Source: Verrucomicrobia bacterium GWF2_51_19
GTDB taxonomy: Bacteria; Verrucomicrobiota; Verrucomicrobiia; Opitutales; UBA12508
Assembly: GCA_001831095.1 (NCBI GenBank)
Contig: MIDP01000011.1
Location: 5,608-69,607 of the forward strand
Direction of reading: 5' to 3'
DNA length: 64,000 nt
Positions 477-43,879 of the stretch are shown here, piece by piece (positions within the stretch are counted from its first letter, which is position 1; each line of letters begins with the position of its first letter). The translations under genes were made by a program, and so were the position numbers. The notes under the pieces were generated by a model. It was not told the DNA's origin and searched no databases. It saw only the letters and a list, made by a program, of their open reading frames with translations.

Positions 477-971
477 ATGCAACTCAGTCCTAAAGTAGAA
501 CGGGTCCTCAATGACCAAATCAATCACGAATTGACAGCCTTTTACGCCTACATGGCCATGGCCGCTTGGTTCGAGCAAACACCTTACAAGGGCTTTTCCA
601 CCTGGATGCAGGCCCAGAGCAAAGAAGAACTCACTCATGCCGACAAGATATTCCATTATATCTCAGAACGCAACGGTTCCATCAAGCTCAAGGAGATTCC
701 ACTAGACGACTACAGCTTCAAGACACCCCTGTCTGTCTTCGAAGCTGCATTGATCCTGGAAGAATCGACGACGGCCGCCATCCACGACGTCTACGAGCTC
801 TCACTCAAGGAGAAAGACTTCGAAACACAAAACTTTCTCAACTGGTTCCTTAAAGAACAAATCGAAGAAGAATCCTCCGTCCGCGATATGATCGATAAGC
901 TCAAGCTCTCCAATGGCAGCCCAAGTGCGCTTATGCACCTGGACAGCGTTGCTGGGAAAAGGCCTCTGTAA
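477..971 (+). CDS. ftnA: ferritin (bacterial non-haem ferritin)
   Basis: 164-aa ORF with a ferritin-like four-helix signature recognised by eye (LNDQINHELTAFYAYMAMAAWF, EELTHADKIF, NWFLKEQIEEE). Confidence 0.9.
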   Translation: MQLSPKVERVLNDQINHELTAFYAYMAMAAWFEQTPYKGFSTWMQAQSKEELTHADKIFHYISERNGSIKLKEIPLDDYSFKTPLSVFEAALILEESTTAAIHDVYELSLKEKDFETQNFLNWFLKEQIEEESSVRDMIDKLKLSNGSPSALMHLDSVAGKRPL

Positions 972-1084
972 AATGGCCTCTAGCTGCGTTCTCCTTGCTT
1001 GGGCTAGGTCACCTACCTCAAGTAGGCTCCCGTCGCCCACGCTCGTCGGGCCTTGCTATAGGCTCATTTGACAAAGGCCTTTGA
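957..1084. repeat. R1 quasi-palindromic intergenic repeat (solo copy)
   Basis: Sequence aaaaggcctctgtaaaatggcctctagc...gccttgctataggctcatttgacaaaggccttt. Clearly homologous to the R1 copies at 7528-7650, 16780-16900, 31562-31675, 32396-32512 and 41772-41895. Its outer arm covers the ferritin stop codon. Confidence 0.85.
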
Positions 1085-4428: not shown

Positions 4429-4467
4429 AGGCTTCTTTTTTGATATAGTTATCACATGCATTTTTGC

Positions 4468-4774
4468 CCTCAATCATTAGCGAAGAACAAGTCATATCGG
4501 TTGAGTTGCCTGTATAGTTGAGGCCTGCATTGTCATGAGTGTTCTAATTTAAATTTCACCAAATGGTGAGAACGCTCTCCTGAATTTTTAATCGGTCCGC
4601 GTCTGCAAGACGCCCTCGATGCGCCGTTAGAGAGCTCGGCGGGTCTATGGAGCCTTTTGTGGCGCACTCCTTCTGCATCCGAGAGCGGCTATGGCTGTAA
4701 AAACAAGAGCTTAAAATGAATTTGTCGCTGTTTTAGATAAAATACTCGGTTATAGTATTTTTATAAAAAGTCAA
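4468..4774 (-). ncRNA. candidate outward transcript H1 (leader X, long tail)
   Basis: Minus-strand TTGACT at 4774..4769, a 14-nt spacer, then TATAAC at 4754..4749. Followed by the conserved core, hairpin GCGTCT-gca-AGACGC (4599-4613), TCACC-attt-GGTGA, and the terminus. Transcription is inferred, not shown. Confidence 0.3.
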
Positions 4775-4971
4775 GCTTTTTCGTAAAAATTTTCGGCGTG
4801 GCGTAATCTTTCATAAGCTTTAAATAATCAACAAGCATAAGCCTCGATTTCCGCATACTGTGCCGCAATTAGACTGTCGGCGTAGCCCAACTGCGTTGAT
4901 GCTGCGTTTGGAGTTGATGTACAGTTACTTTAGGCTCCGAGTACGGCCTCGACGATTTATTACGAAAAAGC

Positions 4972-5195
4972 TTGACTTTTTATTTAAAAAATATAACAGA
5001 CATTAAATATAAAAATTAATATATAAAACTCAACATCAACCTCCATTATTTTTTTAAAATCAGAAAAAGCCGCTCACGTAGTGCAGAAGGAGTGCGCCAC
5101 AAAAGGCTCCATGGACCCGCCGAGCTCTCTAACGGCGCATCCAGGGCGCATCGGAAAACCGATGCGCGATCATAAAATTTCGCTAATGATTGAGG
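4972..5195 (+). ncRNA. candidate outward transcript H2 (leader Y, short tail)
   Basis: TTGACT 4972-4977, 14 nt, TATAAC 4992-4997. Followed by the core and the perfect hairpin GCGCATCGG-aaaa-CCGATGCGC (5146-5167), 13 nt before the terminus. Confidence 0.3.
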
Positions 5196-5295: not shown

Positions 5296-6498
5296 ATGTA
5301 CACACGCATACTTACCCGAACCATTCAGAGAGTCAGCAAACAATTCCCTATATTGATGCTTACAGGGCCGCGTCAAGTAGGGAAAACGACACTTTTTGAG
5401 ATGTGTGCCGAAGGGGCTCGCAATTATGTGACGTTGGATGATATGGACGCAAGAAGTCTCGCGCAAAGAGATCCCAAGCTTTTTTTGCAAACGTATACTT
5501 ATCCACTCATCATTGATGAGGTACAATACGCCCCTCAACTGTTCAGTGCCATCAAGATAATTGTCGATCGCGAGAAAAAAAACGGGCTCTTTTGGCTCAC
5601 GGGCTCACAGAAATACGCTCTGATGAAGGGAGTGACGGAGAGCTTGGCGGGTCGCGTCGCAATTTTGGACCTTTTGGGCCTCTCTCAATCGGAGCGAGAG
5701 GGTCGAGACAGTCAGCCTTTTCTTCCGACCAAGAATTGGGTTGAGGCAAACAGGGCTGATGCTCCTTCACTCCAGGACATCTACAAGCGCATTTGGGAGG
5801 GATCTTTCCCGCGAGTGTGTGAAAGCGGCGAGCGAGACATTTTTTATCATTCGTATATTCAGACTTATTTGCAGCGAGATGTTCCCGATGTTTTAGGGGT
5901 TCATAATGCAGTGTCATTTTATAAGTTTTTGAGTGCAATTGCAGCCCGAACTGGGCAAATGCTCAATTACACTGATCTCGCCAGGGATGTCGGTATTGAC
6001 AATAAAACGGCGAAAGCTTGGCTTTCCGTGCTGCAAACATCGGGCTTGGTTTATTTATTGGAGCCGTATTATGCGAATGTGACAAAAAGGCTGATAAAGG
6101 CGCCCAAAATATATTTTTTAGATACGGGCCTGTGTTGTTATTTGACGAAATGGCCAACGCCAGAGTCCCTGGAGGCGGGTGCGATGTCAGGTGCTATTTT
6201 GGAAACGTATCTGTTTATAGAAATACTCAAAAGCTATTGGCACAATGGCCTAGAGGCCCATTTTTACTATTATCGCGACGCCGACAAAAGAGAGATCGAC
6301 CTCCTCATCGACTCCGGTAATATGCTCTATCCTATCGAGTTCAAAAAGACGGCGACCCCCTCTCATACGGCTTCACAACATTTTCATGTCCTTCAACAAC
6401 TGTCAAAAGAGGTGGGGCCTGGAGCTGTTTTATGTTTAGTTGAAAAGGCCATTCCGCTCTCTGAAACCGTGATGGCTATTCCACTTTCCTATTTATAG
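5296..6498 (+). CDS. AAA+ ATPase with C-terminal DUF4143-type domain
   Basis: 400 aa with Walker A LTGPRQVGKTTL and Walker B LIIDEVQ. The overall layout is typical of the AAA_14/DUF4143 ATP-binding proteins. Confidence 0.85.
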   Translation: MYTRILTRTIQRVSKQFPILMLTGPRQVGKTTLFEMCAEGARNYVTLDDMDARSLAQRDPKLFLQTYTYPLIIDEVQYAPQLFSAIKIIVDREKKNGLFWLTGSQKYALMKGVTESLAGRVAILDLLGLSQSEREGRDSQPFLPTKNWVEANRADAPSLQDIYKRIWEGSFPRVCESGERDIFYHSYIQTYLQRDVPDVLGVHNAVSFYKFLSAIAARTGQMLNYTDLARDVGIDNKTAKAWLSVLQTSGLVYLLEPYYANVTKRLIKAPKIYFLDTGLCCYLTKWPTPESLEAGAMSGAILETYLFIEILKSYWHNGLEAHFYYYRDADKREIDLLIDSGNMLYPIEFKKTATPSHTASQHFHVLQQLSKEVGPGAVLCLVEKAIPLSETVMAIPLSYL

Positions 6499-6933: not shown

Positions 6934-7353
6934 ATGAATATAATGCCTGGAATCGAATCCACATCGAGCGCTTTGGCGGCCGAAAAGCTGCGGTTGAATT
7001 TGATCGCGCAAAACATCGCCAACGCGCAGACGACAAAAGACGTCAATGGTCAGGCGTACAAGCGCAAGTATGCTGTCTTTGAGGCCTACATGACGCCGGA
7101 ACAAGCGGCCCCTGGTATCGATACGCAAGGAGTGCGCGTCAGTGGAGTCAAGGAAGACATGACGCCCGGGTTAAAAATTTTCAATCCGCAACACCCGCAT
7201 GCTGACAAAAACGGCATGGTGGAGTACCCCAACGTCCAGTTATCGAACGAGATGGTGGACATGATCATGGCCTCTCGCGCCTACGAAGCCAACCTGAACG
7301 TCGTTAAAACTTCTTATCAGATGGCTCAACAGGCGCTCAATCTTGGCAAGTAA
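6934..7353 (+). CDS. flgC: flagellar basal-body rod protein FlgC
   Basis: 139 aa with NLIAQNIANAQTT and the C-terminal VDMIMASRAYEANLNVVKT motif. Confidence 0.92.
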   Translation: MNIMPGIESTSSALAAEKLRLNLIAQNIANAQTTKDVNGQAYKRKYAVFEAYMTPEQAAPGIDTQGVRVSGVKEDMTPGLKIFNPQHPHADKNGMVEYPNVQLSNEMVDMIMASRAYEANLNVVKTSYQMAQQALNLGK

Positions 7354-7371
7354 CCTGCTTAATAAAGAACT

Positions 7372-7650
7372 ATGCAAAATACCGTGAAAGCTCGTTTCGC
7401 GCTCCGTCGTCTGCCTCACGTACGTCTATGTACGCTACGGCAGCTCGTACTCGCGCAAAGCCAGGCTTTGACGCCATTTTTCACAGCTCTTTATTTATCA
7501 ATGATTTTATATTTTTACAAGAAAGGTAAGACCGCTGCAAAATGCGCCTATAGCCAGGCCCGAGGAGCGAGGGCGACAGGAGCCTACTTAAGGTAGGTGA
7601 CTTAGCCCGAACGACGAGAACGCCGCTAGAGGACATTTTGCAATGGTCTT
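7372..7650 (+). repeat. R2-linker-R1 composite repeat (C1)
   Basis: R2 (atgcaaaataccgtgaaagctcgtttcgcgc...catttttcacag) starts 18 nt after the flgC stop. It is followed by an AT-rich linker and R1 (7528-7650). The track ORF 7372..7596 is its translation. Confidence 0.9.
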
Positions 7651-7659
7651 AAGAATACT

Positions 7660-8079
7660 ATGGACATTGCATCAATCAGTCAAATAACCCCCGATGTCAA
7701 CAAGATCGGGATGGGTTCGTTTGCGCGTGATCTTTTGGGAAGTTTTGAAAAGGCCGATGTGGGCTTTGACCAGGTAATGTCGAAGACAGCCGATGTTGGT
7801 AACGCCCTGGCAAAACCGATTTCGATTGAGGTCAATACAGCCGATGTCAAACAGAAAGCCCCAAGCATTGGTAGTCTCTTTGACGACCTTATTCACTCCG
7901 TTGACGACAAGAGCAAAGAGAGCTCCGAGGCTCTCAAACAGGCTTTCAGCGGGCAATCGTCCAATCTCCACCAGACGATGATCGCCATGCAGGAATCCGA
8001 AGTCGCTTTTACTCTCATGTTGGAAGTCCGCAATAAGCTCGTTGAGGGCTTTCAGGAACTCATGAAGATGAGTGTATAA
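7660..8079 (+). CDS. fliE: flagellar hook-basal body complex protein FliE
   Basis: The C-terminus AMQESEVAFTLMLEVRNKLVEGFQELMKM is typical of FliE. 139 aa is long for FliE, so the true start may be an internal Met. Confidence 0.8.
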   Translation: MDIASISQITPDVNKIGMGSFARDLLGSFEKADVGFDQVMSKTADVGNALAKPISIEVNTADVKQKAPSIGSLFDDLIHSVDDKSKESSEALKQAFSGQSSNLHQTMIAMQESEVAFTLMLEVRNKLVEGFQELMKMSV

Positions 8080-9598
8080 TATGAACTTTTTAGAACAAAT
8101 CAAACAACTGTGGAAGGATCTGGGATTCAATCAAAAGATCTCGATCTTTGTGTCGTTTGTATTCGTTGCAACCTGTATGATTGCACTGTTGATGTGGGCT
8201 GGTAAGCCGCAGATGCAGTTGTTGTACGGCGGAATCGAGTCAAAGGACATGTCGCAGATTGTTACGATGTTGGAATCGCAGAGCATTCCTTACAAGGTTG
8301 GTCCTGGAGGCTCATCGATTTTGGTTCCGCAGGATAAGGTCTATTCTTTGAGAATGGACTTGGCGGCCAAGGGCATTCCAAATGGGGGAGGCGTTGGTTT
8401 TGAGGTTTTTGACAAGAGCAATTTCGGTATCAGCGACTTTGTACAACGGACCAACTACATACGCGCGATTCAGGGTGAGTTGTCGAGGACAATCGCCCAG
8501 TTAAACAGTGTGCGCGAGGCCCGTGTAATGATAGTAATGCCTGAAAACAGGCTGTTGTCGGAGCAATCGAAAATCAAGGCAACGGCGTCTGTCTTTGTCG
8601 ACACGGGTGGAATGACCTTGCGCGAAGACGAGATTAACGCCATTCGCTTTCTCGTTGCCAACGCGGTTGAAGGCCTGAGCGCCAACGACGTTGCAGTGGT
8701 CGACAACAAGGGCAATGTGTTGTCGCAGGAGATGCAGTCCGATGGCACTTTCGGTGCAGCCACGAGCCAATTGCGTTATCGGCGCAACCTCGAAGAGTAT
8801 TTTGCAAAGAAAATAGAGAGCATGTTGTCCCGTATCGTAGGCCCTGGAAATGCCGTGGCACGCGTCTCGGTCGAGGTCGAGACGGACACATCGACTATGG
8901 TAGCTGAAACCTTTGACCCGGAAAGTCAAGTTGTGCGTTCACAGACCGTTACAGAGACGTCGACGAGTACAACGGCGTCTCAGGCCGGCCAAGCTCCTGG
9001 AGTCCAGGCCAACACGCCCGCGGAAACCACTAGCACAGGTACAGGCAACAACAATGCGTCCAAAGAGTCGCAAAAGAACAAGACGATCGCCTACGACATC
9101 AACAAGACGCGTTCAGAGCGCATCCAGGCTCCAGGAGCTATCAAGAGGATGAGTGCCTCGGTCTTTATCGACAAGGCGGCAGAAGTTGCCGGGTCAGAAG
9201 AGCAACTCAAGAAAGTCAAGGTCATGGTTGCCAACGCCCTTGGCCTTCCTTCTGACAGCAAAGACGTCACCATTGAGGCCGTCGCCTTTCACAAGATGGA
9301 AGAAAAGCCCGACAGCATGATGAATTTGCCTGTCCCGCTCGTCCGATGGATGGAGTTGGCCCGCAACTTCATCGCGGTTGGCATTGCGATCGTCATGTTT
9401 GCCGTCTTTCTCCGTCTGCTGAAGAAGAGCAAGCCCGAAAGCTTTTCGCTCGAAATGGTCGACAATGGCCCCAAAATGCTCCTCTCGCAGGAAAATGCAA
9501 CGCGGACGACGCCCGACTTACTCAACGAGCTCATCCGCCAAAAGCCAGAAAACGTAAGCACAGCCCTAAAGGACTGGGTTAACACCAACCAACAATAA
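8072..9598 (+). CDS. fliF: flagellar M-ring protein FliF
   Basis: 508 aa with an N-terminal TM segment, the YscJ/FliF-type region (RTNYIRAIQGELSRTI, REARVMIV) and a C-terminal TM segment. Position between fliE and fliG. Confidence 0.92.
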   Translation: MYNMNFLEQIKQLWKDLGFNQKISIFVSFVFVATCMIALLMWAGKPQMQLLYGGIESKDMSQIVTMLESQSIPYKVGPGGSSILVPQDKVYSLRMDLAAKGIPNGGGVGFEVFDKSNFGISDFVQRTNYIRAIQGELSRTIAQLNSVREARVMIVMPENRLLSEQSKIKATASVFVDTGGMTLREDEINAIRFLVANAVEGLSANDVAVVDNKGNVLSQEMQSDGTFGAATSQLRYRRNLEEYFAKKIESMLSRIVGPGNAVARVSVEVETDTSTMVAETFDPESQVVRSQTVTETSTSTTASQAGQAPGVQANTPAETTSTGTGNNNASKESQKNKTIAYDINKTRSERIQAPGAIKRMSASVFIDKAAEVAGSEEQLKKVKVMVANALGLPSDSKDVTIEAVAFHKMEEKPDSMMNLPVPLVRWMELARNFIAVGIAIVMFAVFLRLLKKSKPESFSLEMVDNGPKMLLSQENATRTTPDLLNELIRQKPENVSTALKDWVNTNQQ

Positions 9599-9604
9599 AA
9601 ACCT

Positions 9605-9826
9605 ATGCAAAATGCCGTGAAAGCTCGTTTCGCGCTCCGCCTCCTGGCTCACGTACCATCGTACGCTACGCCAGCTCGTGCTCGCGCAAAGCCAAGCTTT
9701 GACGTCATTTTTCACAGGTTTTTATGGATCAATGATTTACATTTTATTAGAAAGGTAAGGCCGTTTGAAAATGTACATCAAAACTCGAGTGACGATAACG
9801 CAGCAGACATTTTACAAAGGTCTTAA
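9605..9826 (+). repeat. R2-linker-(degenerate R1) composite repeat (C2)
   Basis: Starts 6 nt after the fliF stop and is homologous to C1. Stem CTGGC...GCCAG replaces the CTGCC...GGCAG of C1. The track ORF 9605..9826 is its translation. Confidence 0.9.
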
Positions 9827-15950: not shown

Positions 15951-16751
15951 ATGAGTACAGATGTATCAAATCTAGTGGCCTCGAAAACGCCTTATCAGAC
16001 GGGTTCGTCAACGAGTTACCAGCCGTCAACGAGCTCCACGATCACGCCGTATCAGGCCGTCAGCAAGGAACAAACGCTCACTTTTCAACAACAGATGGAT
16101 AAAATCGCCCTAGAAAAGGCATCACTGCTGGATAAGTTGATCAGTGATGGCAAGGGCATAGACAGCTCTTCTACGATGACAGACCAGCAAAGGGCAGAAT
16201 TTTGGAGTAAGCTGGAACAACAGTACAAAGAGCTCGATTGGAAGTATCAAACCGAGCAGGCGAAGATTCAGTCTGCACAGCAAGTCAACACGAGCAAAAT
16301 GACTCGGACGGAAAAAGAAAAGCTAGACTCGCTCTACACGACCGAGGCCGACCGTCAACTGAACATGCAAGACTTTCTCACGTTGATGACAAAACAGCTG
16401 CAATATCAAAACCCGATGGAGCCAATGAGCGACCTATCGTTCATGTCGCAGATGAGCAGCTTTACGTCTCTCGAACAGATGAAAGCGTTGTCGACATCGA
16501 TGGCCTCATTCACCAAGACGCAAAATCAGGCGTCCGCGCAGAGCTATTTGGGCAAGGAGGTCGTCATCAACGCGACTGATAAGCTCTATGCGGGCAGGAC
16601 AGAGGTGGGCATCGTCGAAGAAGTCAGACAATCGAACGCCGGTGATACTTACGTCGTCGTCAACGGCAAGCAATTCCTCTTTAAGGACATTGTCACCGTC
16701 CGCACACCCGTGGCTGCAACGACGGACACAACCACGGAAACCATTGTTTAA
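15951..16751 (+). CDS. flgD: flagellar hook capping/assembly protein FlgD
   Basis: FlgD motif QDFLTLMTKQLQYQNPMEPMSDLSFMSQMSSFTSLEQM. Confidence 0.9.
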   Translation: MSTDVSNLVASKTPYQTGSSTSYQPSTSSTITPYQAVSKEQTLTFQQQMDKIALEKASLLDKLISDGKGIDSSSTMTDQQRAEFWSKLEQQYKELDWKYQTEQAKIQSAQQVNTSKMTRTEKEKLDSLYTTEADRQLNMQDFLTLMTKQLQYQNPMEPMSDLSFMSQMSSFTSLEQMKALSTSMASFTKTQNQASAQSYLGKEVVINATDKLYAGRTEVGIVEEVRQSNAGDTYVVVNGKQFLFKDIVTVRTPVAATTDTTTETIV

Positions 16752-16779
16752 TACTAAAATTTCAAAACATCAAAGATAA

Positions 16780-16900
16780 AGAGCGATTCAAAATGCGCCT
16801 ATAGCAAGGCCCGAGGAATGAGGGCGACGGGAGCCTACTTAAGGTAGGTGACCTAGCCCGAACGACGAGAACGCCGCTAGAGGCCATTTTCAATCGCTCT
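16780..16900. repeat. R1 quasi-palindromic repeat (solo copy between flgD and flgE)
   Basis: Sequence agagcgattcaaaatgcgcctatagcaaggcccgagga...gccgctagaggccattttcaatcgctct. The outer arms are complementary. Confidence 0.9.
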
Positions 16901-16913
16901 TCAGAAAGGGAAT

Positions 16914-24804: not shown

Positions 24805-25189
24805 CCGCAATCATTAGCGACCGCAAAAGTTCACCCGCTGAAAATCAAAAATCATCTGATGTTAACTGGAATTGATGTTTTTTCTGACGGATTATTGGTC
24901 CGCGGTGAATGCGTCCGCAGACATACTAACTGCCTTTAGCTCTGCGTGTGGCAACACGCTCTGGATGCGTATACAGAAGTACTAACTCCTTCCAACTCTC
25001 TGCGTGTGGCAACACGCCCTCGATGCGCCGTTAGAGAGCTCGGCGGGTCTATGGAGCTGTTTGTGGCGCACTCCTTATGCCTCCGAGGGCGGCTTTGGTT
25101 GATTTTTTAAAATATCTGATATTGATTGATATTTAAAATATTCATTTTTTGTATTTAATATCCAGTATAGTTTTTAAATAAAAAGTCAA
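24805..25189 (-). ncRNA. candidate outward transcript H3 (leader Y, two S hairpin modules, tail type Z)
   Basis: Minus-strand TTGACT 25189..25184, 14 nt, TATACT 25169..25164. Followed by the core and two GCGTGT-ggca-ACACGC hairpins (around 24949 and 25004). Transcription is inferred. Confidence 0.3.
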
Positions 25190-25217
25190 GCTTTTTCGCA
25201 ATAAATCGTCGAGGCTA

Positions 25218-25486
25218 CCTCGATCCTTAGCGAAATTTCATTACCGCGCATCGGTTTTCCGATGCTCCCTTGAATGCGCCATTACAAGTACTAACTCCAT
25301 CCAACTCTGCGTGTGTCAACACGCCCTCGATGCGCCGTTAGAGAGCTCGGCGGGTCTATGGAGCCTTTTGTGGCGCACTCCTTCTGCTCTCGGAGGCGGC
25401 TTTGGCTGTAAAAACAAGATATTGGAATGGATTTATCGCTGTTTTAGAAAAAAATCTTCAAATATAGTATTTTTATAAAAAGTCAA
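25218..25486 (-). ncRNA. candidate outward transcript H4 (leader X, short tail)
   Basis: Minus-strand TTGACT 25486..25481, 14 nt, TATATT 25466..25461. Followed by the core, GCGTGT-gtca-ACACGC, and GCGCATCGG-tttt-CCGATGCtC. Confidence 0.3.
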
Positions 25487-25569
25487 GCTTTTTCGTAAAA
25501 ATTTTCGGCGCAGCAGAAGCTCTTTTAATATTTACATAATCAAAAAACAATCTCGATTCACTCATTCTA

Positions 25570-26037
25570 GGCTGCAACGAGCTTATGCGCTGCAACTCGA
25601 CGGCTTCGTTTTCGCACGAAGGGTTGCAATGAGCTTATGCGCTGCAACTCGACGGCTTTGATGCCGCATTCTGGGCTGCAACGAGCTTATGTGCTGCAAC
25701 TCGACGGCTTTGATGCCGCATTCTGGGCTGCAACGAGCTTATGTGCTGCAACTCGACGGCTTCGTTTCCGCACGAAGGGTTGCAATGAGCTTATGCGCTG
25801 CAACTCGACGGCTTTGTTTTCGCACGAAGGGTTGCAATGAGCTTATGCGCTGCAACTCGACGGCTTTGTTTCCGCAGTCTGGGCTGCAACGAGCTTATGT
25901 GCTGCAACTCGACGGCTTCGTTTTCGCACGAATGGTTGCAATGAGCTTATGCGCTGCAACTCGACGGCTTCGTTTTCGCACGAATGGTTGCAATGAGCTT
26001 ATGCGCTGCAACTCGACGGCTTTGATGAAGCGTTGGG
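25570..26037. repeat. 52-bp tandem repeat array, 9 units
   Basis: The units start exactly at 25570, 25622, 25674, 25726, 25778, 25830, 25882, 25934 and 25986. The conserved part is gcaaYgagcttatgYgctgcaactcgacggctt. The ~19-nt variable part occurs in only a few recurring variants (cgttttcgcacgaagggtt and tgatgccgcattctgggct types). Confidence 0.97.
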
Positions 26038-26097
26038 CGTTATATAGCTGTGTATGTCGGCACTGAATCTAGCCTCGACGATTTATTGCGAAAAAGC

Positions 26098-26453
26098 TTG
26101 ACTTTTTGTTTAAAAACTATATTAGACATTAAATACAAAAATTTGAATATTTAAAATCCGATATTTTTAAAAAAATCAGCTAAAGCCGCTCTCGAACACA
26201 GAAAGAGTGCGACAACAAGCGGCTCCCTAGACCCGCCGAGCTCTCTAACGGCGCATCCAGGGCGTGTTGTCACACGCAGAGCTTGAGGGAGTTAGTACTT
26301 CTGGAGACGCATTCACCGCAAACCGGTTAAATTTTTAGGAAAGCGTTTTCACTCTTTTGGTGAAATTTACATTAGAGCACACATGACCATGCAGGCGTCA
26401 ATTAGACAGGCAACGCAACTGATATGACTTATTTTTTTGCTAATGATTGAGGG
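26098..26453 (+). ncRNA. candidate outward transcript H5 (leader Y, long tail)
   Basis: TTGACT 26098-26103, 14 nt, TATATT 26118-26123. Followed by the core, GCGTGT-tgtc-ACACGC, the TCACC/GGTGA hairpin and the terminus. Confidence 0.3.
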
Positions 26454-27630: not shown

Positions 27631-27643
27631 AATGGCCTCTAAC

Positions 27644-28525
27644 TTATTTTTGAGCGGGCGCTTGAGTCGGTTGTTCCGCTGGCTTGGCAGGCTCGGCTAC
27701 GGGTGCAACGACATCCGCTGGCTTGGCAGGCTCGGCTACGGGTGCAACGACATCCGCTGGCTTAGCAACTTCCGCTGGCTTAGCAACTTCCGCTGGCTTA
27801 GCAACTTCCGCTGGCTTAGCAACTTCCGCTGGCTTAGCAACATCCGCTGGCTTAGCAGGCTCGACAACGGGTGTTGCTACCTCGGCGGGCTTCTCAGGAG
27901 CTGCTGTGGTTGGCGCTTCATCCTTAGTTTCAGGCGCAACCGCGATTATCGTTTCAGGCTGGTACAGCTTTTCTACCTCTGCAATGATTTTTATGGAATG
28001 CGTGCCGCAACCCACGATATATTCTTTGTTGCCATTTTTGACGAGCTTGACAAAGGACATTTTTTCGGTCGGTTTGTTGTCTCCAGGCTTGACCCACATG
28101 TACTTGACCCAAGCTTCACCACGGGCGTCCGTCTTAACCTTTCGATTCATCTCGGCGATAAAGTAATTGCCTTTGACGTCCCGAAGCTTGTTAGATTCAC
28201 GTCCTTCGAGCTTTGGCTTGACAGGATGCATGACAAAAAGACCGTCCGGGCTGTGAATCCAAATGTAGGTTCCACTGAAAATGAATGAGCTGTCTTTCCC
28301 TCTGAATTTCGGAAAAGCCGCCTCGCCCTCTTTCTCAATAAGGACCGCGCCCTCTCTCACCTTTTGCGTGATGAGGTCAGCGCTGATGGAGTCATTCTCT
28401 GTCGCGACGCATTTAGCTGAGCTCTCTTCTGCCAGATCATCGACATTGGTAGCCCTGAGGTAGGCAAAAGAGGTTAATCCGAGCAATATAGCTCCGGCCA
28501 ATAAATAAGGTCTGAATTTTTCCAT
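27644..28525 (-). CDS. secreted single-Cache-domain protein with repetitive PAEVAK / PADVVAPVAEPAK C-terminal tail
   Basis: 293 aa with a signal peptide (LLAGAILLGLTSFA). The Cache-like core is FIFSGTYIWIHSPDGLFVMHPVKPKLEGRESNKLRDVKGNYF...EAWVKYMWVKPG. The proline-rich tandem tail is encoded by the repeats at 27676-27861. Confidence 0.75.
   Translation of the reverse strand: MEKFRPYLLAGAILLGLTSFAYLRATNVDDLAEESSAKCVATENDSISADLITQKVREGAVLIEKEGEAAFPKFRGKDSSFIFSGTYIWIHSPDGLFVMHPVKPKLEGRESNKLRDVKGNYFIAEMNRKVKTDARGEAWVKYMWVKPGDNKPTEKMSFVKLVKNGNKEYIVGCGTHSIKIIAEVEKLYQPETIIAVAPETKDEAPTTAAPEKPAEVATPVVEPAKPADVAKPAEVAKPAEVAKPAEVAKPAEVAKPADVVAPVAEPAKPADVVAPVAEPAKPAEQPTQAPAQK
27676..27861. repeat. in-frame coding tandem repeats (2 x 39 bp, then about 6 x 18 bp)
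   Basis: ccgctggcttggcaggctcggctacgggtgcaacgacat appears twice (27676-27753), followed by ccgctggcttagcaactt units from 27754. Confidence 0.95.
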
Positions 28526-28608: not shown

Positions 28609-28929
28609 TCAATCATTAGCGACATTTTATTACCGCGCATCGGTTTTCCGATGCGCCCTGGATGCGCCTACAGAAGTACTAACTCCCTCCAACTCTGCGT
28701 GTAACAACACGCCCTGGATGTGCTTTGAATCTATCCGCCTACAGCTCTGCGTGTGGCAACACGCCCTGGATGCGCCGTTAGAGAGCTCGGCGGGTCTAGG
28801 GAGCCGTTGGTGGCGCACTCCTTCAGTCTCCGAGAGCGGATTTTGCTGTAAAAAAACAAGATATTTGAATGGATTTGTCGCTGTTTTTAGAAAGGAATCT
28901 TTAAATATAGTATTTTTATAAAAAGTCAA
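28609..28929 (-). ncRNA. candidate outward transcript H6 (leader X, two S modules, short tail)
   Basis: Minus-strand TTGACT 28929..28924, 14 nt, TATATT 28909..28904. Followed by the core, hairpins GCGTGT-ggca-ACACGC and GCGTGT-aaca-ACACGC, and GCGCATCGG-tttt-CCGATGCGC. Confidence 0.3.
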
Positions 28930-29105
28930 GCTTTTTCGTGTTTTTTTTGCGCTGCGGTATAACTGATCTTGGTGCGTAATTCACAAAGAATAATCTCGAT
29001 TCCCGCATACCAGGCCGCAGCCAACTTATACGCTATAGCTCGACGGACTTGATGCTGCATTGGGCGTTATATGCTATGTATGTCGGCCCTGAATTTAGCC
29101 TCGAC
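28609..29105. repeat. A-element copy A3, truncated (one half-unit plus central region, interrupted by A4)
   Basis: Left terminus tCAATCATTAGCGA at 28609-28622. The central region ends ...gaatttagcctcgac at 29105, directly abutting the terminus of A4. The Y-side half-unit is missing. Confidence 0.85.
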
Positions 29106-29468
29106 CTCAATCATTAGCGAAAAATAAGTCATATCGGTTGCGTTGCCTGTCTAATTGACGCCTGTATGGTCATGTGTGCTCTAATGTAAATTTCACCAAA
29201 TGGTGAAAACGCTTTCCTAAAAATTTAACCGGTTTGCGGTGAATGCGTCTCCAGAAGTACTAACTCCCTCAAGCTCTGCGTGTGACAACACGCCCTCGAT
29301 GCGCCGTTAGAGAGCTCGGCGAGTCTAGGGAGCTGTTGGTGTCGCACTCCTTCTGGGCCCGAAAGCGGCTTTGGATGATTTTAAAAAAAATATCGGATAT
29401 TGATGATGATTTTAAATATTCAAATTTTTGTATTTAATATCCAATATGGTTTTTAAACAAAAAGTCAA
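29106..29468 (-). ncRNA. candidate outward transcript H7 (leader Y, long tail)
   Basis: Minus-strand TTGACT 29468..29463, 14 nt, CATATT 29448..29443. Followed by the core, GCGTGT-gaca-ACACGC and the long tail. Confidence 0.3.
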
Positions 29469-29543
29469 GCTTTTTCGCAATAAATCGTCGAGGCTAGATT
29501 CAGTGCCGACATACACAGCTATATAACGCCCAACGCAGCATCA

Positions 29544-29795
29544 AAGCCGTCGAGTTGCAGCGCATAAGCTCATTGCAACCCTTCGTGCGAAAACGAAGCC
29601 GTCGAATTGCAGCGCATAAGCTGCATGTAGCCCAGAATGCGGCATCAAAGCCGTCGAATTGCAGCGCATAAGCTGCATGTAGCCCAGAATGCGGCATCAA
29701 AGCCGTCGAGTTGCAGCGCATAAGCTGCATGTAGCCCAGAATGCGGCATCAAAGCCGTCGAGTTGCAGCGCATAAGCTCGTTGCAGCCCAGAATG
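29544..29795. repeat. 52-bp tandem repeat array, about 5 units (inverted relative to 25570-26037)
   Basis: aagccgtcga(g/a)ttgcagcgcataagc recurs at 29544, 29596, 29648, 29700 and 29752, with exact 52-bp spacing. Three units carry a private variant ctgcatgtagcc. Confidence 0.95.
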
Positions 29796-29873
29796 CGGGA
29801 ATCGAGATTGTTTTTTTGGATTATGTAAATATTAAAAGAGCTTCTGCCGCGCCGAAAATTTTTACGAAAAAGC

Positions 29874-30146
29874 TTGACTTTTTATAAAAATACTATAATC
29901 GAGTATCTTATCTAAAAACAGCGATAAATCAATTCCAATATCTTGTTTTTACAGCCAAAGCCGCTCTCGAAGGCTGAAGGAGTGCGCCACAAAAGGCTCC
30001 CGAGACCCGCCGAGCTCTCTAACGGCGCATCGAGGGCGTGTTGACACACGCAGAGTTGGATGGAGTCAATACTTGTAATGAAATGATGCATCCAGTGCGC
30101 ATCGAAAAACCGATTCGCGGGCAAAAAATTTCGCTAATGATTGAGG
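29874..30146 (+). ncRNA. candidate outward transcript H8 (leader X, short tail)
   Basis: TTGACT 29874-29879, 14 nt, TATAAT 29894-29899. Followed by the core, GCGTGT-tgac-ACACGC, and a degenerate terminal hairpin. Confidence 0.3.
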
Positions 30147-31067: not shown

Positions 31068-31195
31068 TTGACAACGGGCTTTTTGAACACTTAAAAGCCC
31101 CTCACGCATTTTTCAACGGCCTTTGATTGGCGACCCGTTTTTTAAAACATTGCTTTTCTTGCTTTTTAGTTAAAAATGAAAGGCCGTCACTTTTT

Positions 31196-31558
31196 ATGCT
31201 TGTCTTATCTGTAGCTCTCGGTGGTGCATTGGGTGCGTTGGCGCGATTGGGCCTGATGCAAGGCCTCCAATCTCTTTTTGGCGGAACGTTTCCTTACGCG
31301 ACGTTTGTCATCAACATTACTGGATCCTTTGCGCTCGGGTTTCTGCTCGAAATCTTTACCTGGACGTGGAACCCGTCTGCCGACACGAAGGCCTTTCTCG
31401 TCACCGGGTTTCTCGGAGCCTTCACCACATTCTCCACGTTCAGCATGGACATCGTCTTTCTCTTGCAAAAACGTGCTATGCTCGAAGCCGCTCTCTACGT
31501 CGCTGGCTCTGTTTTTTTCTCTCTAATAGGGTTTATTGCCGGCATGAAATGCGTCTAA
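31196..31558 (+). CDS. crcB: fluoride ion channel CrcB/FluC
   Basis: GGALGALARL, FPYATFVINITGSFALGF, GFLGAFTTFSTFS. The start was moved to ATG 31196, giving 120 aa. Confidence 0.88.
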   Translation: MLVLSVALGGALGALARLGLMQGLQSLFGGTFPYATFVINITGSFALGFLLEIFTWTWNPSADTKAFLVTGFLGAFTTFSTFSMDIVFLLQKRAMLEAALYVAGSVFFSLIGFIAGMKCV

Positions 31559-31559: not shown

Positions 31560-31830
31560 AAAAGACCGCTCCAAAATGTCCTATAGCGTCGTTCGGGCTA
31601 AGTCACCTACCTCAAGTACGCTCCTGTCGCCCTCGCTCCTCGGGCCTTGCTATAGACGCATTTTGAAGCGGTCTTATGTCGTTGGTATTCTTTTAGTTAG
31701 ATTAAAGAATGGATACTACTGACTTTGCGCGAGTACGATTCGGCCGTAGTTGCATGGCTATCACTCCGGCTTCGCCAATTTTTTAAAGCGAAACACAAAA
31801 ATGCATGCATTTTTGCGCCGGTCTTTTGTT
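31560..31830 (-). repeat. R2-linker-R1 composite repeat (C3, R2 internally rearranged)
   Basis: On the minus strand it begins immediately after the stop (31829-31831) of ORF 31829..32389. The R1 part is 31562-31675. Confidence 0.85.
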
Positions 31831-32389
31831 AGAGATCTTCGGTTTTCTTCTGTTCTGTAGGTATTCCCGATAGGTCCATTTGGGCGATGAGGAGTATATT
31901 GAGCACGTCCTTGAGGTCGCTGGATTCGCATTCGAGGGCATGGGTCTTTTGGTTGAGCGACATCATCAGTGTTTTGAAGGACGCTGAGAGCTGTTGAGAA
32001 AAGAATTTCAGTTCGCGCTCGACGTTGAAAAAGGACTTCGGTGGATGGATTTCGCATTCCGCATAGGCCTTTTGGATGGGAACCAAGATGTCGGCAGAAA
32101 GTTCGGCTATATCGTGTGAGGCTTGGATGAGGTTTTCGACCGCGTTGATAAACGGTCCCATATTTTGGAGCAAAGATTTGATCCGGATGGACGATTCACG
32201 GATTTGGTCCTTGGTCAATGGGTGAATGCGAACCAATTCATCGCGTTCATCGGCAATTGCTTTCGCTAACAGGGCATCTTTTTCTTTGTCTTCCATGACA
32301 GCTCTCTCCGTTGAGGTTTGATACTGCATACATCGACATGGATAGGGAAAACATAAGCCAAAAGTTCCTCGCGAAATGAGAATTTTCAC
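31829..32389 (-). CDS. hypothetical protein (helical)
   Basis: 186-aa ORF. A likelier start is Met at 32296 (MEDKEKDALLAK...). No family recognised. Confidence 0.55.
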   Translation of the reverse strand: MKILISRGTFGLCFPYPCRCMQYQTSTERAVMEDKEKDALLAKAIADERDELVRIHPLTKDQIRESSIRIKSLLQNMGPFINAVENLIQASHDIAELSADILVPIQKAYAECEIHPPKSFFNVERELKFFSQQLSASFKTLMMSLNQKTHALECESSDLKDVLNILLIAQMDLSGIPTEQKKTEDL

Positions 32390-32395
32390 CTAAAA

Positions 32396-32512
32396 AGACC
32401 GCTTCAAAAGGGTCTCCAGGCCCGAGGAGCGAGGGCGACAGGAGCGTACGTTGGTACGTGACTTAGCCCGAACGACGAGAACGCCGCTAGAGGCCATTTT
32501 CAAGCGGTCTTT
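32396..32512. repeat. R1 quasi-palindromic repeat (solo copy)
   Basis: Sequence aagaccgcttcaaaagggtctccaggcccgaggagcgagggcgacagg...gccgctagaggccattttcaagcggtctt. Lies in the divergent region upstream of lptD. Confidence 0.88.
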
Positions 32513-35436: not shown

Positions 35437-36390
35437 ATGGAACTCGCCAATCTGTTTCCAGAAAGTATTCTCGAGCGGCCAATGCTCGTCGTTGGTCATA
35501 TACGCGCCGATGGTGATGCTATTGGGGCCCAAATCGCACTGTGTCGCGCGCTCAACGCCAAGGGCTTTCGGGCAAAGCTCTTGGTTGATAAAGACATTCC
35601 ACACAAATTCCTGCCATTTATCGGCGACACACCCAACGAGCCAGCCACGTCGTTCTCGTACAGTGGAGAGGCCATTTGCGCAGTTGACTGTGCTGGAAAA
35701 GAGCGCCTGTCGCCATTCTTCGATCAAGCGATCGACGTCAACATCGACCACCACAACCTCAATCCCAAATTCGCCACCCATAACTATGTCCAAACGGCCA
35801 GCTCTACCTGCGAACTCCTCGCCGAGCTCCTCCTCGACGCCCGGTGGCCCATTGACGCCGTGTCGGCAAATGCCCTCTACCTCGGCATCGTCACCGATTC
35901 TGGCCAATTCGTTCACACCGAAACGACTGCAGAGACGCACCGGATAGCCGCAACGTTGGTTGACCTAGGCGCCAAGCCAGAGGCCATTCACGACGTCCTC
36001 TATCAGCACGAATCGCTGCCAACCTACAAGCTCCTACAACGCTTTTTGGACTCCCTCCAGCTCTTTTGTGACGGTTCGCTATGCATCGGCATGCTCTTTC
36101 TTGCAGACTTTGCTGAAACCGGAACGACGCACGCAGCAACCGAAGATTTCGTCAATTATCCGCGATCGATCGACGGTGTAGCCATCTCTGCCTTTATCGA
36201 AGAAACACGCGATGGCACACGAGTCAGCATGCGCGCCCGTCAGCCGTCTGCACGCCTCGATCTCATTGCAAAAAACTTCGGCGGCGGTGGCCACCCATCT
36301 GCAGCTGGCTTTGCATCAAAGTTTTCACCTAACGATGTCGTCCCCGTCCTCGTGAAAGCCCTACAAAGACCGATACAAAATGATTTCTAG
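35437..36390 (+). CDS. nrnA: DHH-family phosphoesterase NrnA (oligoribonuclease/pAp phosphatase)
   Basis: GHIRADGDAIGA, VNIDHHN and GGGGHPSAAGF. Confidence 0.88.
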   Translation: MELANLFPESILERPMLVVGHIRADGDAIGAQIALCRALNAKGFRAKLLVDKDIPHKFLPFIGDTPNEPATSFSYSGEAICAVDCAGKERLSPFFDQAIDVNIDHHNLNPKFATHNYVQTASSTCELLAELLLDARWPIDAVSANALYLGIVTDSGQFVHTETTAETHRIAATLVDLGAKPEAIHDVLYQHESLPTYKLLQRFLDSLQLFCDGSLCIGMLFLADFAETGTTHAATEDFVNYPRSIDGVAISAFIEETRDGTRVSMRARQPSARLDLIAKNFGGGGHPSAAGFASKFSPNDVVPVLVKALQRPIQNDF

Positions 36391-36575
36391 CGGCGTTCTT
36401 CCCGCAGGCGCTTTATGTCGTTGTTATTCATCTAGTTAGCTCAAAGACCTGGGCGAAATGGATGCAAAAATGTGGCTTTGCGCGAGTACGATCTGCCGTA
36501 GCGTACATAAACGTACGTGAGGCAGTCGACGGAGAGCGAAACGCATTTTGGCGCCATTTCACCCAGGTCTTTGGG
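36385..36575 (-). repeat. R2-linker-(R1 remnant) composite repeat (C4)
   Basis: On the minus strand it starts directly after the stop (36576-36578) of ORF 36576..37310. The R1 remnant tctagcggcgttct contains the nrnA stop codon. Confidence 0.85.
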
Positions 36576-37310
36576 TTAAAACGTCATTTCGAGCTCAAAC
36601 AAGTCTACGCTGAATGGAGCGATTTTACGGCCCTCTTCGGCGGCAGGCGATAGGCGGCAATGCAACGATTCGGGTGTTGCTGTATGCGCGTAGAAATGCA
36701 CATTTTGCGACAAGGGCCAATTGACTTCAATGCCGTCTTCTTCATTCAGAGAGCGGCACCGCACACGACTTTCCTTAAACTGGCCAAAGGTGTGATTCAA
36801 GGTGTCAACGGGGAAGTCGACCTGCTTGGCGAGTGCTTGCTCGAGGCATTTCCGCGCCGGTACGTTCAGGACATAGTGGGCCTGTGTCGTCTGTTCGAGC
36901 CAAGGAATGGCCCATTGAAAGTTCCATTGCGGATGCCAATACAGCGTCCGCTCCGTCCGGTTATCGAGCTCCAGGCGCGCCTTCAATGAGAATTCGTTGA
37001 AATCATAGGTCAGCGTGCAGAGGCAACGCTCGCCACGTTTTTCCAACCGACATTGACGCTCCGTGAGATGCAAGACTTGAAAGGTTTCGGGAAACTGGCA
37101 TTCGGTGCAAAAGTCTGCCCACAGGCCATTGTTGTGGCCATTTTCATGAAAAAATAACACGTCCCGCGTCTGTGTATTGCCGAGCAGGAGGTGCCAATTC
37201 AACAAGTGGCCCGTCTTCAAATGCACTATAAAGCGCGAGGGCCCACGTTCGATCGTCGCAAGGTCTGTATGCATGACACCCATTCGAGCACGTTTTGGAG
37301 ATTTATTCAA
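36576..37310 (-). CDS. hypothetical protein
   Basis: 244-aa ORF with ordinary composition. No family recognised. The start lies 31 nt from the left terminus of A5. Confidence 0.6.
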   Translation of the reverse strand: MNKSPKRARMGVMHTDLATIERGPSRFIVHLKTGHLLNWHLLLGNTQTRDVLFFHENGHNNGLWADFCTECQFPETFQVLHLTERQCRLEKRGERCLCTLTYDFNEFSLKARLELDNRTERTLYWHPQWNFQWAIPWLEQTTQAHYVLNVPARKCLEQALAKQVDFPVDTLNHTFGQFKESRVRCRSLNEEDGIEVNWPLSQNVHFYAHTATPESLHCRLSPAAEEGRKIAPFSVDLFELEMTF

Positions 37311-37340
37311 CTTCTTATTGATTGTGGTTCAAATCACAAT

Positions 37341-37657
37341 AATCATTAGCGAAAAACAAGTCATACCGACCGCTTCCCATTTCTAATTGAGGCTTACATG
37401 GTCATGTGTGCTCTAATTTAAATTTCACCAAATGGTGAAATCGACTTCCTGAATTTTTAACCGGTCCGCGTCTGCAAGACTCCCTCGATGCGCCATTGGA
37501 GAGATTGACGGATCTATGGAGCCGTTTGTGGCGCACTCCTTCTGTATCCGAGAGCGGCTTTGGCTGATTTTTTAAAAAATATTGGATATTGATGAGGGTT
37601 TTAAATATTTATTTTTTTGTATTTAATGTCTAATATAGTTTTAAAACAAAAAGTCAA
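37341..37657 (-). ncRNA. candidate outward transcript H9 (leader Y, long tail, diverged core)
   Basis: Minus-strand TTGACT 37657..37652, 14 nt, TATATT 37637..37632. The core carries several substitutions, including a compensatory G-C to A-T change in the CGCCG/CGGCG stem. Confidence 0.3.
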
Positions 37658-37906
37658 GCTTTTTCGCAATAAATCAGAGATACCAGATTCATAGTCGAAA
37701 GGCACAATGCCATAACGCCCAACGCAGCATCAAAGTCGTCGAGTTGCAGCACATAAGCTCGTTGCAGCCCGGCGTGCGGAAACAAAGCTGTCTAGCTATA
37801 ACGCCCAAGCTAGTTGCAGCCTAGTACAAGAGAATCGAGATTGTTTTTGTGGATTATGTAAATATTAAAAGAGCTTTTGCCTCGCCGAAAATTTTTACGA
37901 AAAAGC

Positions 37907-38171: not shown

Positions 38172-38415
38172 GTGGTTCAAATCACAACAATGCATTGAAT
38201 ATGGGGATTGTTTTTGTTGACAATAACGTTTCTATTTTTACTCTGCCTTCTTGAGTTAAGTGCTTGTGTCGCATCTTTTTACATTACATCTCCGCTCGCT
38301 ACCACTCTTTTCGTCCGAGTGTTGCACTTCATTGTTTAATTGGCGTGAGGTACATGCGGTACGTGACTTAGCTCGAACGACGAGAGCGCCGCTACCAATT
38401 TTGCCAATGTCTTTT

Positions 38416-39378: not shown

Positions 39379-39382
39379 TTTA

Positions 39383-43856: not shown

Positions 43857-43879
43857 ATTTATTAAAACCGATGCCCATG

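Follow-up and report, generated by a model that had tools for sequence, protein, structure and literature searches.

The 64-kb stretch of DNA analysed here, positions 5,608 to 69,607 of contig MIDP01000011.1 (hereafter the window), comes from an uncultured, Opitutales-related Verrucomicrobium, the metagenome-assembled genome (MAG) GWF2_51_19, and contains many copies of two palindromic repeats, R2 and R1, that abut the stop and start codons of neighbouring genes. The placement and orientation of these elements relative to genes are non-random, and the elements are secondary insertions. On balance, we lean towards the reading that R2 and R1 represent a new family of long repeats akin to repetitive extragenic palindromes (REPs) and bacterial interspersed mosaic elements (BIMEs), or to MITEs (miniature transposable elements with inverted repeats), which is specific to the lineage, has spread as insertions and, because the elements lie inside operons, is co-transcribed with its neighbours. 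A preliminary description, made from the window sequence alone, had already proposed palindromes of the REP/BIME or MITE kind at gene ends. This proposal is supported here, and the pattern is real, statistically strong, and richer than first reported.

Identification of the repeats

Copies in the window were located by self-BLAST, exact sequence patterns, and hidden Markov models (HMMs) of the two families. The exact patterns recovered six R2 right halves and six R1 cores, where none was expected by chance. A metagenome scan with the R2 pattern returned 61 loci (L-numbers below), and 56 of these, about 0.5 Mb from two assemblies, were kept, while L004, L014, L036, L054, and L055 were discarded as chance matches. 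The 56 loci carry the same repeat families as the window, including its other large repeats. A search with the R2 pattern against species-representative genomes, a set from which the source genome is absent, gave only a chance match in Hymenobacter. The R1 and R2 HMMs were built on the window and the loci together, and after removal of duplicate contexts these contained 185 non-redundant copies (112 R2 and 73 R1), a density of about one element per 3 kb.

Genes in the window and the loci were called with a hexamer model trained on these data, and the calls match those in the databases across the flagellar region. The other assemblies of the organism are 99.7-100% identical to the window. The repeats give rise to artefacts in both annotation and assembly: public gene calls include “genes” of 73-74 amino acids located wholly within R2-R1 dimers (L064 10430-10654 and 12663-12884), and assembly GCA_003530575.1 has an N-gap (NN) inside R1 (L002, about 10630).

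R2 and R1 are inverted homologues that form a dimer

Both units are non-coding quasi-palindromes of about 125 nt (122-129 nt) with stems of about 55 bp. The unit ends are alike in R2 and R1, AAGACC-nnnn-CAAAATG and CATTTTG-nnnn-GGTCTT, and terminal inverted repeats are present (AAGACCnnnnCAAAATG / CATTTTGnnnnGGTCTT). The iterated R1 and R2 HMMs match each other's copies on the opposite strand, and an apical GCGTAC..GTACGTGA is common to the two units, which shows that R1 and R2 are inverted homologues and that their gene-seeking ends are the same end. Wherever R1 is present between R2 and the next gene, it has the same arrangement and orientation in all cases but one, and many R2 copies that appear to be solo in fact precede the spacer and an R1 with an internal deletion. 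The constant arrangement and these hidden R1 remnants imply that the unit is a head-to-head dimer, R2-spacer-R1, which extends from a stop codon to a start codon.

The dimers fill entire intergenic spacers. For example, the flgC-fliE spacer of 306 nt (7354-7659) consists of two long hairpin-forming units and an AT-rich spacer (Table 1). The linker is 25-66 nt long (n = 16 dimers) and semi-conserved between copies, with the types ..ATTAACAACTTACAAGAAAGG.. and ..AATCTAACTAAATGAATACCAACGACAT... The copies are about 79% identical to one another and decay by internal deletion, and R1 ends in GGTCT-TA in 57% of its copies. In 52 of 53 copies of R2, the apical hairpin is adjoined by the tetranucleotide CTAC (GTAG on the other strand), an internal position within the element; the counterpart in R1 is GGAG. 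There is also a long variant of R2, in which the apex is replaced by a string of about 95 nt with five small hairpins (GGGGGCAGCGGCCCCC, GGATGC..GCATCC, CCACTTTTAAAAGTGG, and others). This inserted string lies exactly 5' of an invariant GCTACGG, that is, at the GTAG point. Besides the two copies in Table 1, at least five further copies of this variant (...TTTCGCGCCGGGGGCA...) were found, which are also flush with stop codons.

The dimer ends coincide with gene boundaries

Distances of R2 were counted from the final base of the stop codon to the A that opens the terminal AGACC. An intact 5' end is present in 93 R2 copies. Of these, 72 have it turned towards the stop codon of a co-oriented gene, at a distance of -22 to +12 nt in 66 of the 72 and most often, in a sharp peak, of 0-1 nt. 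Negative distances represent open reading frames (ORFs) that enter the element and end on its own TGA, TAG, or TAA; seven ORFs terminate at the same TGA, 22 nt inside R2. The 3' end of R2 is flush with nothing. R1 has its 3' end (GGTCTTA/GGTCTTT) 0-13 nt upstream of an ATG, with a mode of 3, and a free 5' end. The proteins encoded behind R1 begin like Ffh, ATP synthase gamma, RecN, YchF, and RpiB, or with what reads as a signal peptide. Where the 3' end of R1 faces a convergent gene, it is on the stop codon of that gene in 19 of 21 cases, and R1 is placed the other way round in 21 of 64 copies.

The preliminary description listed nine R2 copies in the window as strictly adjacent to stop codons. 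All nine exist on the strand of their gene, at distances of +12, 0, about +4, +5, -22, +2, 0, 0, and -7 nt, so within the window the rule holds without exception. It also holds in the approximately 0.5 Mb outside the window, but not strictly: among 88 non-redundant R2 5' ends with a called neighbour, 72 (82%) are turned towards a stop codon and 16 towards a start codon. Likewise, the description as 3'-end elements is right for R2, whereas R1 follows the mirror rule, with starts or convergent stops, and the dimer spans from stop to start. The R1 quasi-palindromes, including the solo copies, were recovered by self-BLAST, patterns, and HMMs, along with a few additional fragments.

Tight spacers as the cause of the flush placement are ruled out by the spacers that are roomy, here defined as having at least 50 nt of DNA other than R1 or R2 on the far side. 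In these, R2 is flush in 39 of 42 cases against 2.7 expected under uniform placement, and for R1 the distance to an ORF boundary is at most 13 nt in 23 of 30 cases against 3.5 expected, the expectations being somewhat understated as part of the “other” DNA is degenerate R1 or other repeat. Clear roomy cases in which the downstream sequence is unrelated are still flush.

The boundaries are not confined to protein-coding genes. Two R2 copies start 0-1 nt after tRNA genes, those for tRNA-Lys and tRNA-Leu. Behind tRNA-Asp, an R2-like fragment begins at 5 nt, and the 5' end of tRNA-Arg(CCT) directly adjoins an R1 that is cut short at model position 88. As a separate observation, the tRNA genes have canonical TTGACA-type -35 boxes and T-runs directly after the tRNA.

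The stop codon at the R2 junction is TAA in 38 of 49 cases, compared with 44% genome-wide, and TAG is nearly absent. The modal junctions are TAA/AGACC and TGA/AGACC, in which the last A of the stop codon is the first A of AAGACC. About half of the copies away from stop codons are preceded by TA or TAA, so that, with the enrichment of TAA, the joint has a sequence component. A short DNA target does not, however, explain boundary placement to 0-3 nt. No mechanism that was tested explains either the precision with which the elements abut stops, starts, and tRNA ends or their gene-linked orientation.

Orientation follows the genes rather than replication

In tandem gene pairs, R2 is co-oriented with the genes in 63 cases and anti-oriented in 12 (p=1.7e-9), and the corresponding numbers for R1 are 38 and 8 (p=9e-6). 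Another 22 R2 copies are located between convergent genes and five between divergent genes. The preliminary description had judged the orientation rule to be stronger than expected for neutral repeats, and both these counts and the roomy spacers bear this out. Along the window, the R2 strands are in the order +,+,-,-,-,-,-,-,+ and always follow the local gene, and many single 10-kb loci hold R2 on both strands. Since the orientation flips with the local gene both in the window and in the loci, a rule based on the replication strand is excluded.

This bears on one explanation of the co-orientation, namely that the elements are palindrome-associated derivatives of IS200/IS605 insertion sequences (IS) in the lagging-strand template and that co-orientation is a by-product of gene-strand bias. 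The hairpin ends, the lack of a target-site duplication, and the joining of one end to a short motif would all fit such an origin. However, R2 switches orientation at least twice within 64 kb, together with the local gene, both strands are used in many of the 10-kb loci, and no TnpA was found in a weak search of 0.58 Mb. This explanation was already disfavoured, and we regard it as extremely improbable.

The elements are insertions into conserved operons

As had been described, the flagellar operon is interrupted at flgC/fliE, fliF/fliG, and flgD/flgE. We compared these junctions with those in the two closest reachable relatives that have the flgB-flgC-fliE-fliF-fliG...flgD-flgE operon, in which FliG is 64% and 61% identical to that of the window. 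The flgC-fliE spacer is 22 and 41 nt long in the first and second relative and 306 nt in the window; the fliF-fliG spacer is 42, 9, and 231 nt, and the flgD-flgE spacer 51, 66, and 162 nt, respectively. Neither relative has a match to the R1 or R2 HMM at any of the three junctions. The short, element-free spacers in the relatives indicate that the elements in the window are insertions. No orthologues of the window genes were present in the fetched loci. A further difference in this region is a 45-nt in-frame indel in FlgD (266 versus 281 amino acids; window 15951-16751, L064 19009-19854) between assemblies that are otherwise 99.7% identical.

There was no excess of target-site duplications of 2-9 nt at any offset (49 R2, 40 R1, and 16 dimers). 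This is difficult to reconcile with a classical MITE mobilised by a transposase of the DDE type (IS630/Tc1-like or IS5-like) with TA or TAA as its target, such that the stop codon is regenerated and insertions elsewhere are purged. Several features do resemble such an element: the terminal inverted repeats, the TA or TAA before the outer end in about half of the non-stop copies, the terminal GGTCT-TA of R1, the enrichment of TAA at the junctions, and the size and non-coding nature of the units. Bacterial MITEs also typically end in TA (PMC2229807). However, the terminal repeats vary and co-vary rather than being conserved for a transposase, each unit has a single gene-flush end despite its symmetric ends, no parent IS with such ends was seen among the 519 predicted proteins from part of the genome, and the orientation bias needs an extra assumption. 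A DDE-mobilised MITE therefore seems doubtful to us.

Arm covariation is almost purely Watson-Crick

The R2 and R1 hairpins are far more stable than shuffled sequence (z = -4.4 to -10), and 97.6% of the stem cells are paired. Compensatory double changes were found in 17 of 36 R2 pairs and 21 of 31 R1 pairs. This covariation was matched by no shuffle, and slid registers drop to 24-47% paired. The swap of CTGCC...GGCAG to CTGGC...GCCAG between the first two R2 copies of the window (C1 and C2), on which the claim of stem covariation had been based, is real and recurs across the family, with CG in 36 copies and GC in 15. The compensation is, however, almost purely Watson-Crick, with double Watson-Crick changes in 165 cells, including the transversion swaps CG/GC and UA/GC, against about 15 cells with one-sided or wobble changes.

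The two units also differ in the strand that folds best. For R2, the antisense RNA is the more stable fold in 52 of 53 copies (mean -69.4 kcal/mol, against -57.9 kcal/mol for sense RNA), while for R1 the sense RNA is the more stable one in 42 of 43; the R1 sense strand has G-U pairs, and the interior of R1 is more conserved than its stems. This strand asymmetry was probably inherited with the family. Pairing is thus maintained, and arm-to-arm correction at the DNA level fits at least as well as selection on the mRNA. One such process is template switching at quasi-palindromes, which is established from E. coli. Because the compensation is almost confined to Watson-Crick changes and the sense fold of R2 is the weaker one, the covariation does not show a function at the mRNA level.

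The Watson-Crick-only compensation and the consistently better strand would also fit recognition of single-stranded DNA, and the elements could be sites that act at the DNA level, either hairpin recombination sites like attC and the Vibrio VCRs, which the overall picture recalls, or sites at gene ends that are bound or cleaved by gyrase or nucleoid proteins. However, the termini are AAGACC/GGTCTT and not RYYYAAC/GTTRRRY, the flanking genes are core housekeeping operons on both strands with conserved gene order rather than promoterless cassettes beside an integrase, and no integrase was seen. We consider DNA-level sites of this kind very unlikely.

Candidate functions of the hairpins

The preliminary description suggested that the elements could be terminators, a role for which the sequence gives no support. 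The stem base is A-U rich (AAAGACC/GGUCUUU) and is followed by TTT at most, and a scan for the terminator consensus found none at the element ends, with counts near the shuffle expectation. An outward promoter in R2 was rejected, as the TTGACG is not accompanied by a consistent -10 box. A candidate promoter TTACAA(N17)AAAAAT over the spacer and the R1 arm is not a general feature, as it is present in some spacer types only and the sequence upstream of many R1 copies is unrelated. In most R2 copies a frame is open from an ATG at position 6 or 13, but its end is not conserved and indels shift the frame, which argues against a conserved small ORF. Finally, a refolding switch between R2 and R1 was dismissed because the partners share variable stem tetranucleotides in none of nine cases. 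The comparison with Rfam gave no match at the gathering score to its covariance models in the window, and none at E<=1 in 7300-7700.

A Shine-Dalgarno (SD)-like motif at -18 to -5 was found in about 18% of the ATG-start genes, and in 13% of the genes located behind an element (window and loci). Since SD use is rare, an R1 hairpin 3 nt from the ATG removes no needed SD. The hairpin must still be compatible with initiation at essential genes.

These data can be read in another way, in which the dimer is a domesticated intercistronic “punctuation” cassette that acts as RNA. It would either carry processing or stability signals, such as RNase III or RNase E sites, a protective 3' hairpin (R2), and a 5' leader hairpin (R1), or be a ribosome-sensitive device that couples or sets the expression of the neighbours, in which the terminating ribosome melts the outer stem of R2 and the initiating ribosome needs the outer stem of R1 to be open. 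Both outer ends are located within the ribosome footprint of a stop or a start, orientation follows transcription and not replication, essential genes tolerate R1 at 3 nt from their ATG, and few genes have an SD-like motif. The G-U pairs, the better sense fold, and the conserved interior of R1 also point in this direction. There are precedents in the orientation-dependent RNase E or RNase III effects of ERIC and Correia elements (PMC2229807) and in the RNA-unfolding model of translational coupling (PMC12548453). However, nearly all R2 copies fold worse as sense RNA, the compensation has few wobble intermediates, and R2 also abuts tRNA genes, which are not translated. Moreover, 16 of 88 R2 and 21 of 64 R1 copies are reversed, the lack of shared tetranucleotides speaks against a designed refolding switch, the relatives run the same operons without the elements, and no Rfam family matches. 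We therefore regard an RNA cassette as possible but rather unlikely.

A proposed REP/BIME-like or MITE-like family of insertions

Under the reading that we favour, a REP/BIME-like or MITE-like family, the elements would have spread as non-autonomous mobile DNA without target-site duplication, by HUH/RAYT-like single-strand cleavage (RAYT, REP-associated tyrosine transposase) or by another mechanism. The invariant GTAG beside the R2 apex is a lead for such cleavage, and the joining site would be A/T-rich, TA(A). Selection may then have retained only those copies and orientations that leave the flanking genes intact. By analogy with known repeats, the elements would as RNA most likely behave like REPs, ERIC, or Correia elements, R2 possibly as a 3' hairpin that protects or attenuates the upstream message and R1 possibly as a leader hairpin that folds on itself and keeps the start codon unpaired, in a host that rarely uses SD motifs.

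A number of observations weigh against this reading. The units are three to five times longer than REPs (about 125 nt versus 20-40 nt), and the GTAG is internal, beside the apex and in R2 only, instead of terminal. The other assemblies, at 99.7-100% identity, show no element indels that would provide empty and filled sites, so mobility is something that we infer. The searches for transposases, RAYTs, and multi-copy ORFs covered 0.58 Mb with 519 predicted proteins, which is part of the genome. In these data, no RAYT, IS200-type/TnpA, or other transposase was found, the first two having been sought by tblastn queries of RayT and IS200 sequences together with a motif scan, which are weak tests, and no high-identity multi-copy ORF or parent IS was found among the predicted proteins, which is likewise a weak test. 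Furthermore, a TA(A) preference combined with selection leaves unexplained why the TAA of the stop codon is chosen over other TAAs in roomy spacers, and why tRNA ends are abutted. Lastly, R2 is weaker as sense RNA and wobble is rare, and the covariation does not indicate a role at the mRNA level.

A different view is that the elements recognise, or are retained at, gene boundaries in general, that is, stops, starts, and tRNA ends, to within 0-3 nt. Integration could be guided by the expression machinery, for example with single-stranded DNA laid bare at the ends of translation or transcription units as the insertion site, and this would account for the co-orientation. Or the dimer could be a genome-wide punctuation cassette that defines the 3' and 5' ends of mRNAs, such that the expression of the neighbours depends on ribosome-driven opening of the hairpins, in a host that makes little use of SD motifs. 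We think it improbable that either is the case.

The placement and the role of small palindromic repeats, as parasites or regulators, are still argued, and R2/R1 represent an unusually clean case. At stops and starts, including those of essential genes and of the flagellar operon, they are positioned to a few bases, and this has held through about 20% divergence, with arm pairing preserved. Should the insertion mechanism be responsible for the placement, this would suggest that mobile DNA has a means of sensing gene ends. Should selection be responsible, the family illustrates how long hairpins can be tolerated or used at sites where translation stops and starts, in a host with rare SD use.

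Copies in the window and other repeats

The coordinates of the copies in the window and of the features in the loci are listed in Table 1. The genes next to the elements in the window were identified by Pfam as FlgC, FliE, FliF, FliG, FlgD, FlgE, a KAS-III/OleA-like enzyme, FabZ, PntAA, an MlaD-like protein, and an ABC ATPase.

Table 1. Coordinates of R2 and R1 copies, their variants, and a second repeat family in the window and in the metagenome loci.
Feature	Sequence	Position	Strand	Remarks
R1, solo, full	window	958-1081	-	3' end antisense over the last 14 nt of ferritin-like ORF 477-971
R2, full (C1)	window	7366-7491	+	HMM 126.7 bits; begins AAAGAACTATGCAAAATACCGTGAAAGC, ends GCTTTGACGCCATTTTTCACAGCTCTTT; 12 nt after flgC stop (7351-7353); hairpin -43.5 kcal/mol as sense RNA, -59 as antisense RNA
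Linker (C1)	window	7492-7527	+	AT-rich; between R2 and R1
R1, full	window	7528-7651	+	HMM 129.1 bits; begins TAAGACCGCTGCAAAATG, ends CATTTTGCAATGGTCTTA; fold -55.2 kcal/mol; GGTCTTA 3' end 8 nt before fliE ATG (7660)
R2, full (C2)	window	9600-9722	+	HMM; starts right after fliF stop TAA (9596-9598), distance 0
R1, internally deleted	window	9760-9824	+	5' arm and model positions 79-123 (HMM 9784-9824); 3' end 5 nt before fliG ATG (9830)
R1, solo, full	window	16779-16901	+	HMM, fold; flgD stop 16751; flgE ATG 16914, 12 nt downstream
R1 of dimer between convergent genes	window	31561-31675	-	3' end 2 nt from stop of ORF 31127-31558 (+)
R2, degenerate, dimer with R1 31561-31675	window	~31705-31825	-	AAGACC about 4 nt after stop of 186-aa gene (31829-32389, -)
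R1, solo, full	window	32395-32512	+	HMM; divergent intergenic region
R1, 3' fragment	window	36365-36400	-	ORF 35437-36390 (+) ends inside it, antisense (stop -26)
R2, full	window	36444-36570	-	5 nt after stop of 244-aa gene (36576-37310, -)
R1, 3' fragment	window	38350-38413	+	3' end 2 nt from stop of gene 38416-39396 (-)
R1, full	window	41771-41890	-	HMM; dimer downstream of oleA-like gene
R2, full	window	41919-42044	-	oleA-like ORF enters 22 nt and ends on the element's TGA (CCGtgaAAGC, 42023-42025)
R1, internally deleted	window	~43870-43950	-	ends just before ATG of next gene (43856); read from sequence, below HMM threshold
R2, full	window	43958-44085	-	2 nt after fabZ stop (44088-44090)
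R2, 5' fragment	window	47506-47556	-	directly after pntAA stop (47558-47560), distance 0; joined to different repeat family
R2, 5' half	window	57841-57896	-	fills spacer from MlaD/MCE-like stop (57904-57906) to next ATG; distance 0
R2, 5' fragment	window	63958-63990	+	overlaps lolD-like stop (63957-63959), distance -7; cut by window end
R2, long variant	L041	1530-1715
R2, long variant	L026	1137-1325
tRNA-adjacent element	L024	5165-5240
tRNA-adjacent element	L041	3588-3674
tRNA-adjacent element	L007	4660-4672
tRNA-adjacent element	L013	986-1067
~730-nt family	window	4465-5195
~730-nt family, related	window	24895-26452
~730-nt family, related	window	28612-30146
~730-nt family, related	window	37329-38175
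~730-nt family, related	window	47390-47480
~730-nt family, related	window	48751-48879
~730-nt family	L023, L052, L061, L030, L013

A second repeat family is represented by a palindrome of palindromes of about 730 nt, with the ends CCCTCAATCATTAGCGAA / TTCGCTAATGATTGAGG and inner inverted blocks, for example GGCGCACTCCTTCTGC and TATAAAAAGTCAAGCTTTTTCG. It fills entire intergenic regions without a long ORF, and one copy is joined to the R2 5' arm at 47506-47556. Within this large family, there are two tandem arrays with a period of 52 nt, at 25573-26022 and 29538-29798 (8.7 and 5 copies, 89% matches), which are reverse complements of each other. The arrays have no unique spacers and are thus not CRISPR-like. 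Tandem repeats of 18 and 39 nt (98% matches) at 27636-27923 are a repetitive coding stretch in the ORF at 27644-28525 (-). The largest paralogue group in the sample is formed by AAA_14/DUF4143 ATPase genes, at about 29% identity. The window copy (5296-6498) adjoins the large palindromic repeat, and the loci contain seven paralogues (L006, L010, L017, two in L031, L048, and L060).

Comparison with known repeat systems

The integron attC sites, including the VCRs, are imperfect palindromes of about 125 nt that are placed flush after ORFs and co-oriented with them, with structure conserved over sequence and strand asymmetry, and their core sites are RYYYAAC/GTTRRRY. R2 and R1 are similar in length, in the position after ORFs, in co-orientation, in the conservation of structure over sequence, and in strand asymmetry. 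They differ in their AAGACC/GGTCTT termini, and they flank core operons on both strands instead of forming a cassette array with an integrase. The mycobacterial interspersed repetitive units (MIRUs) are reportedly located within operons (Supply et al. 1997), oriented with transcription, with ends that overlap the flanking stop and start codons. MIRUs are direct tandem units of 46-101 bp with a small coupling ORF. The intra-operon location, the orientation with transcription, and the overlap with stops and starts are thus shared, but MIRUs are direct repeats with a coupling ORF and not hairpins, and the open frame of R2 lacks a conserved end.

The MITEs Correia/NEMIS, ERIC/IRU, YPAL, and RUP are also of similar size (100-170 nt), with terminal inverted repeats and one long stem-loop. 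Like R2 and R1, they are intergenic and, as is proposed for R2 and R1, co-transcribed with their neighbours, ORFs sometimes read into them, and the effects of ERIC on mRNA depend on orientation (PMC2229807). However, these MITEs usually duplicate their target and have repeats that match an IS, while here there is no duplication and the arms co-vary, and none of them is reported to be flush on stop and start codons as a fixed stop-to-start dimer.

The closest known system is that of the REPs, the BIMEs, and the REPINs, which are RAYT-associated palindromes with GTAG and CGTC super-families. REP super-families mostly occupy the spacers of tandem or convergent genes, no more than 20 bp from the 3' end of an ORF (for example in P. 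entomophila and S. wittichii), so the siting at ORF 3' ends is not in itself novel (PMC3733652). Their dimers are head-to-head or tail-to-tail, with a spacer that is either conserved or variable; the super-families include sub-families with alternative complementary stems and are abundant in Opitutus terrae, a relative of the host (PMC3733652). Sequence similarity between R2/R1 and the O. terrae REPs was, however, absent. The REPs are tagged for RAYT cleavage by GTAG (PMC3733652), and they act as stabilisers in 3' untranslated regions and as attenuators or partial terminators (bioRxiv 10.64898/2026.03.23.713779). Apart from the length of the units and the position of the GTAG, R2/R1 differ in that the partners prefer stop and start, respectively, in that placement is much sharper (0-3 nt), and in that the REP-sized part of the units is only the apical 5-bp hairpin. 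They resemble REP, BIME, and REPIN in being extragenic imperfect palindromes, present in hundreds of copies near ORF 3' ends of tandem and convergent genes. Further likenesses are the inverted dimers with a semi-conserved spacer, the lack of a target-site duplication, the sub-families with alternative complementary stems, and possibly the conserved GTAG next to a hairpin, internal though it is in R2.

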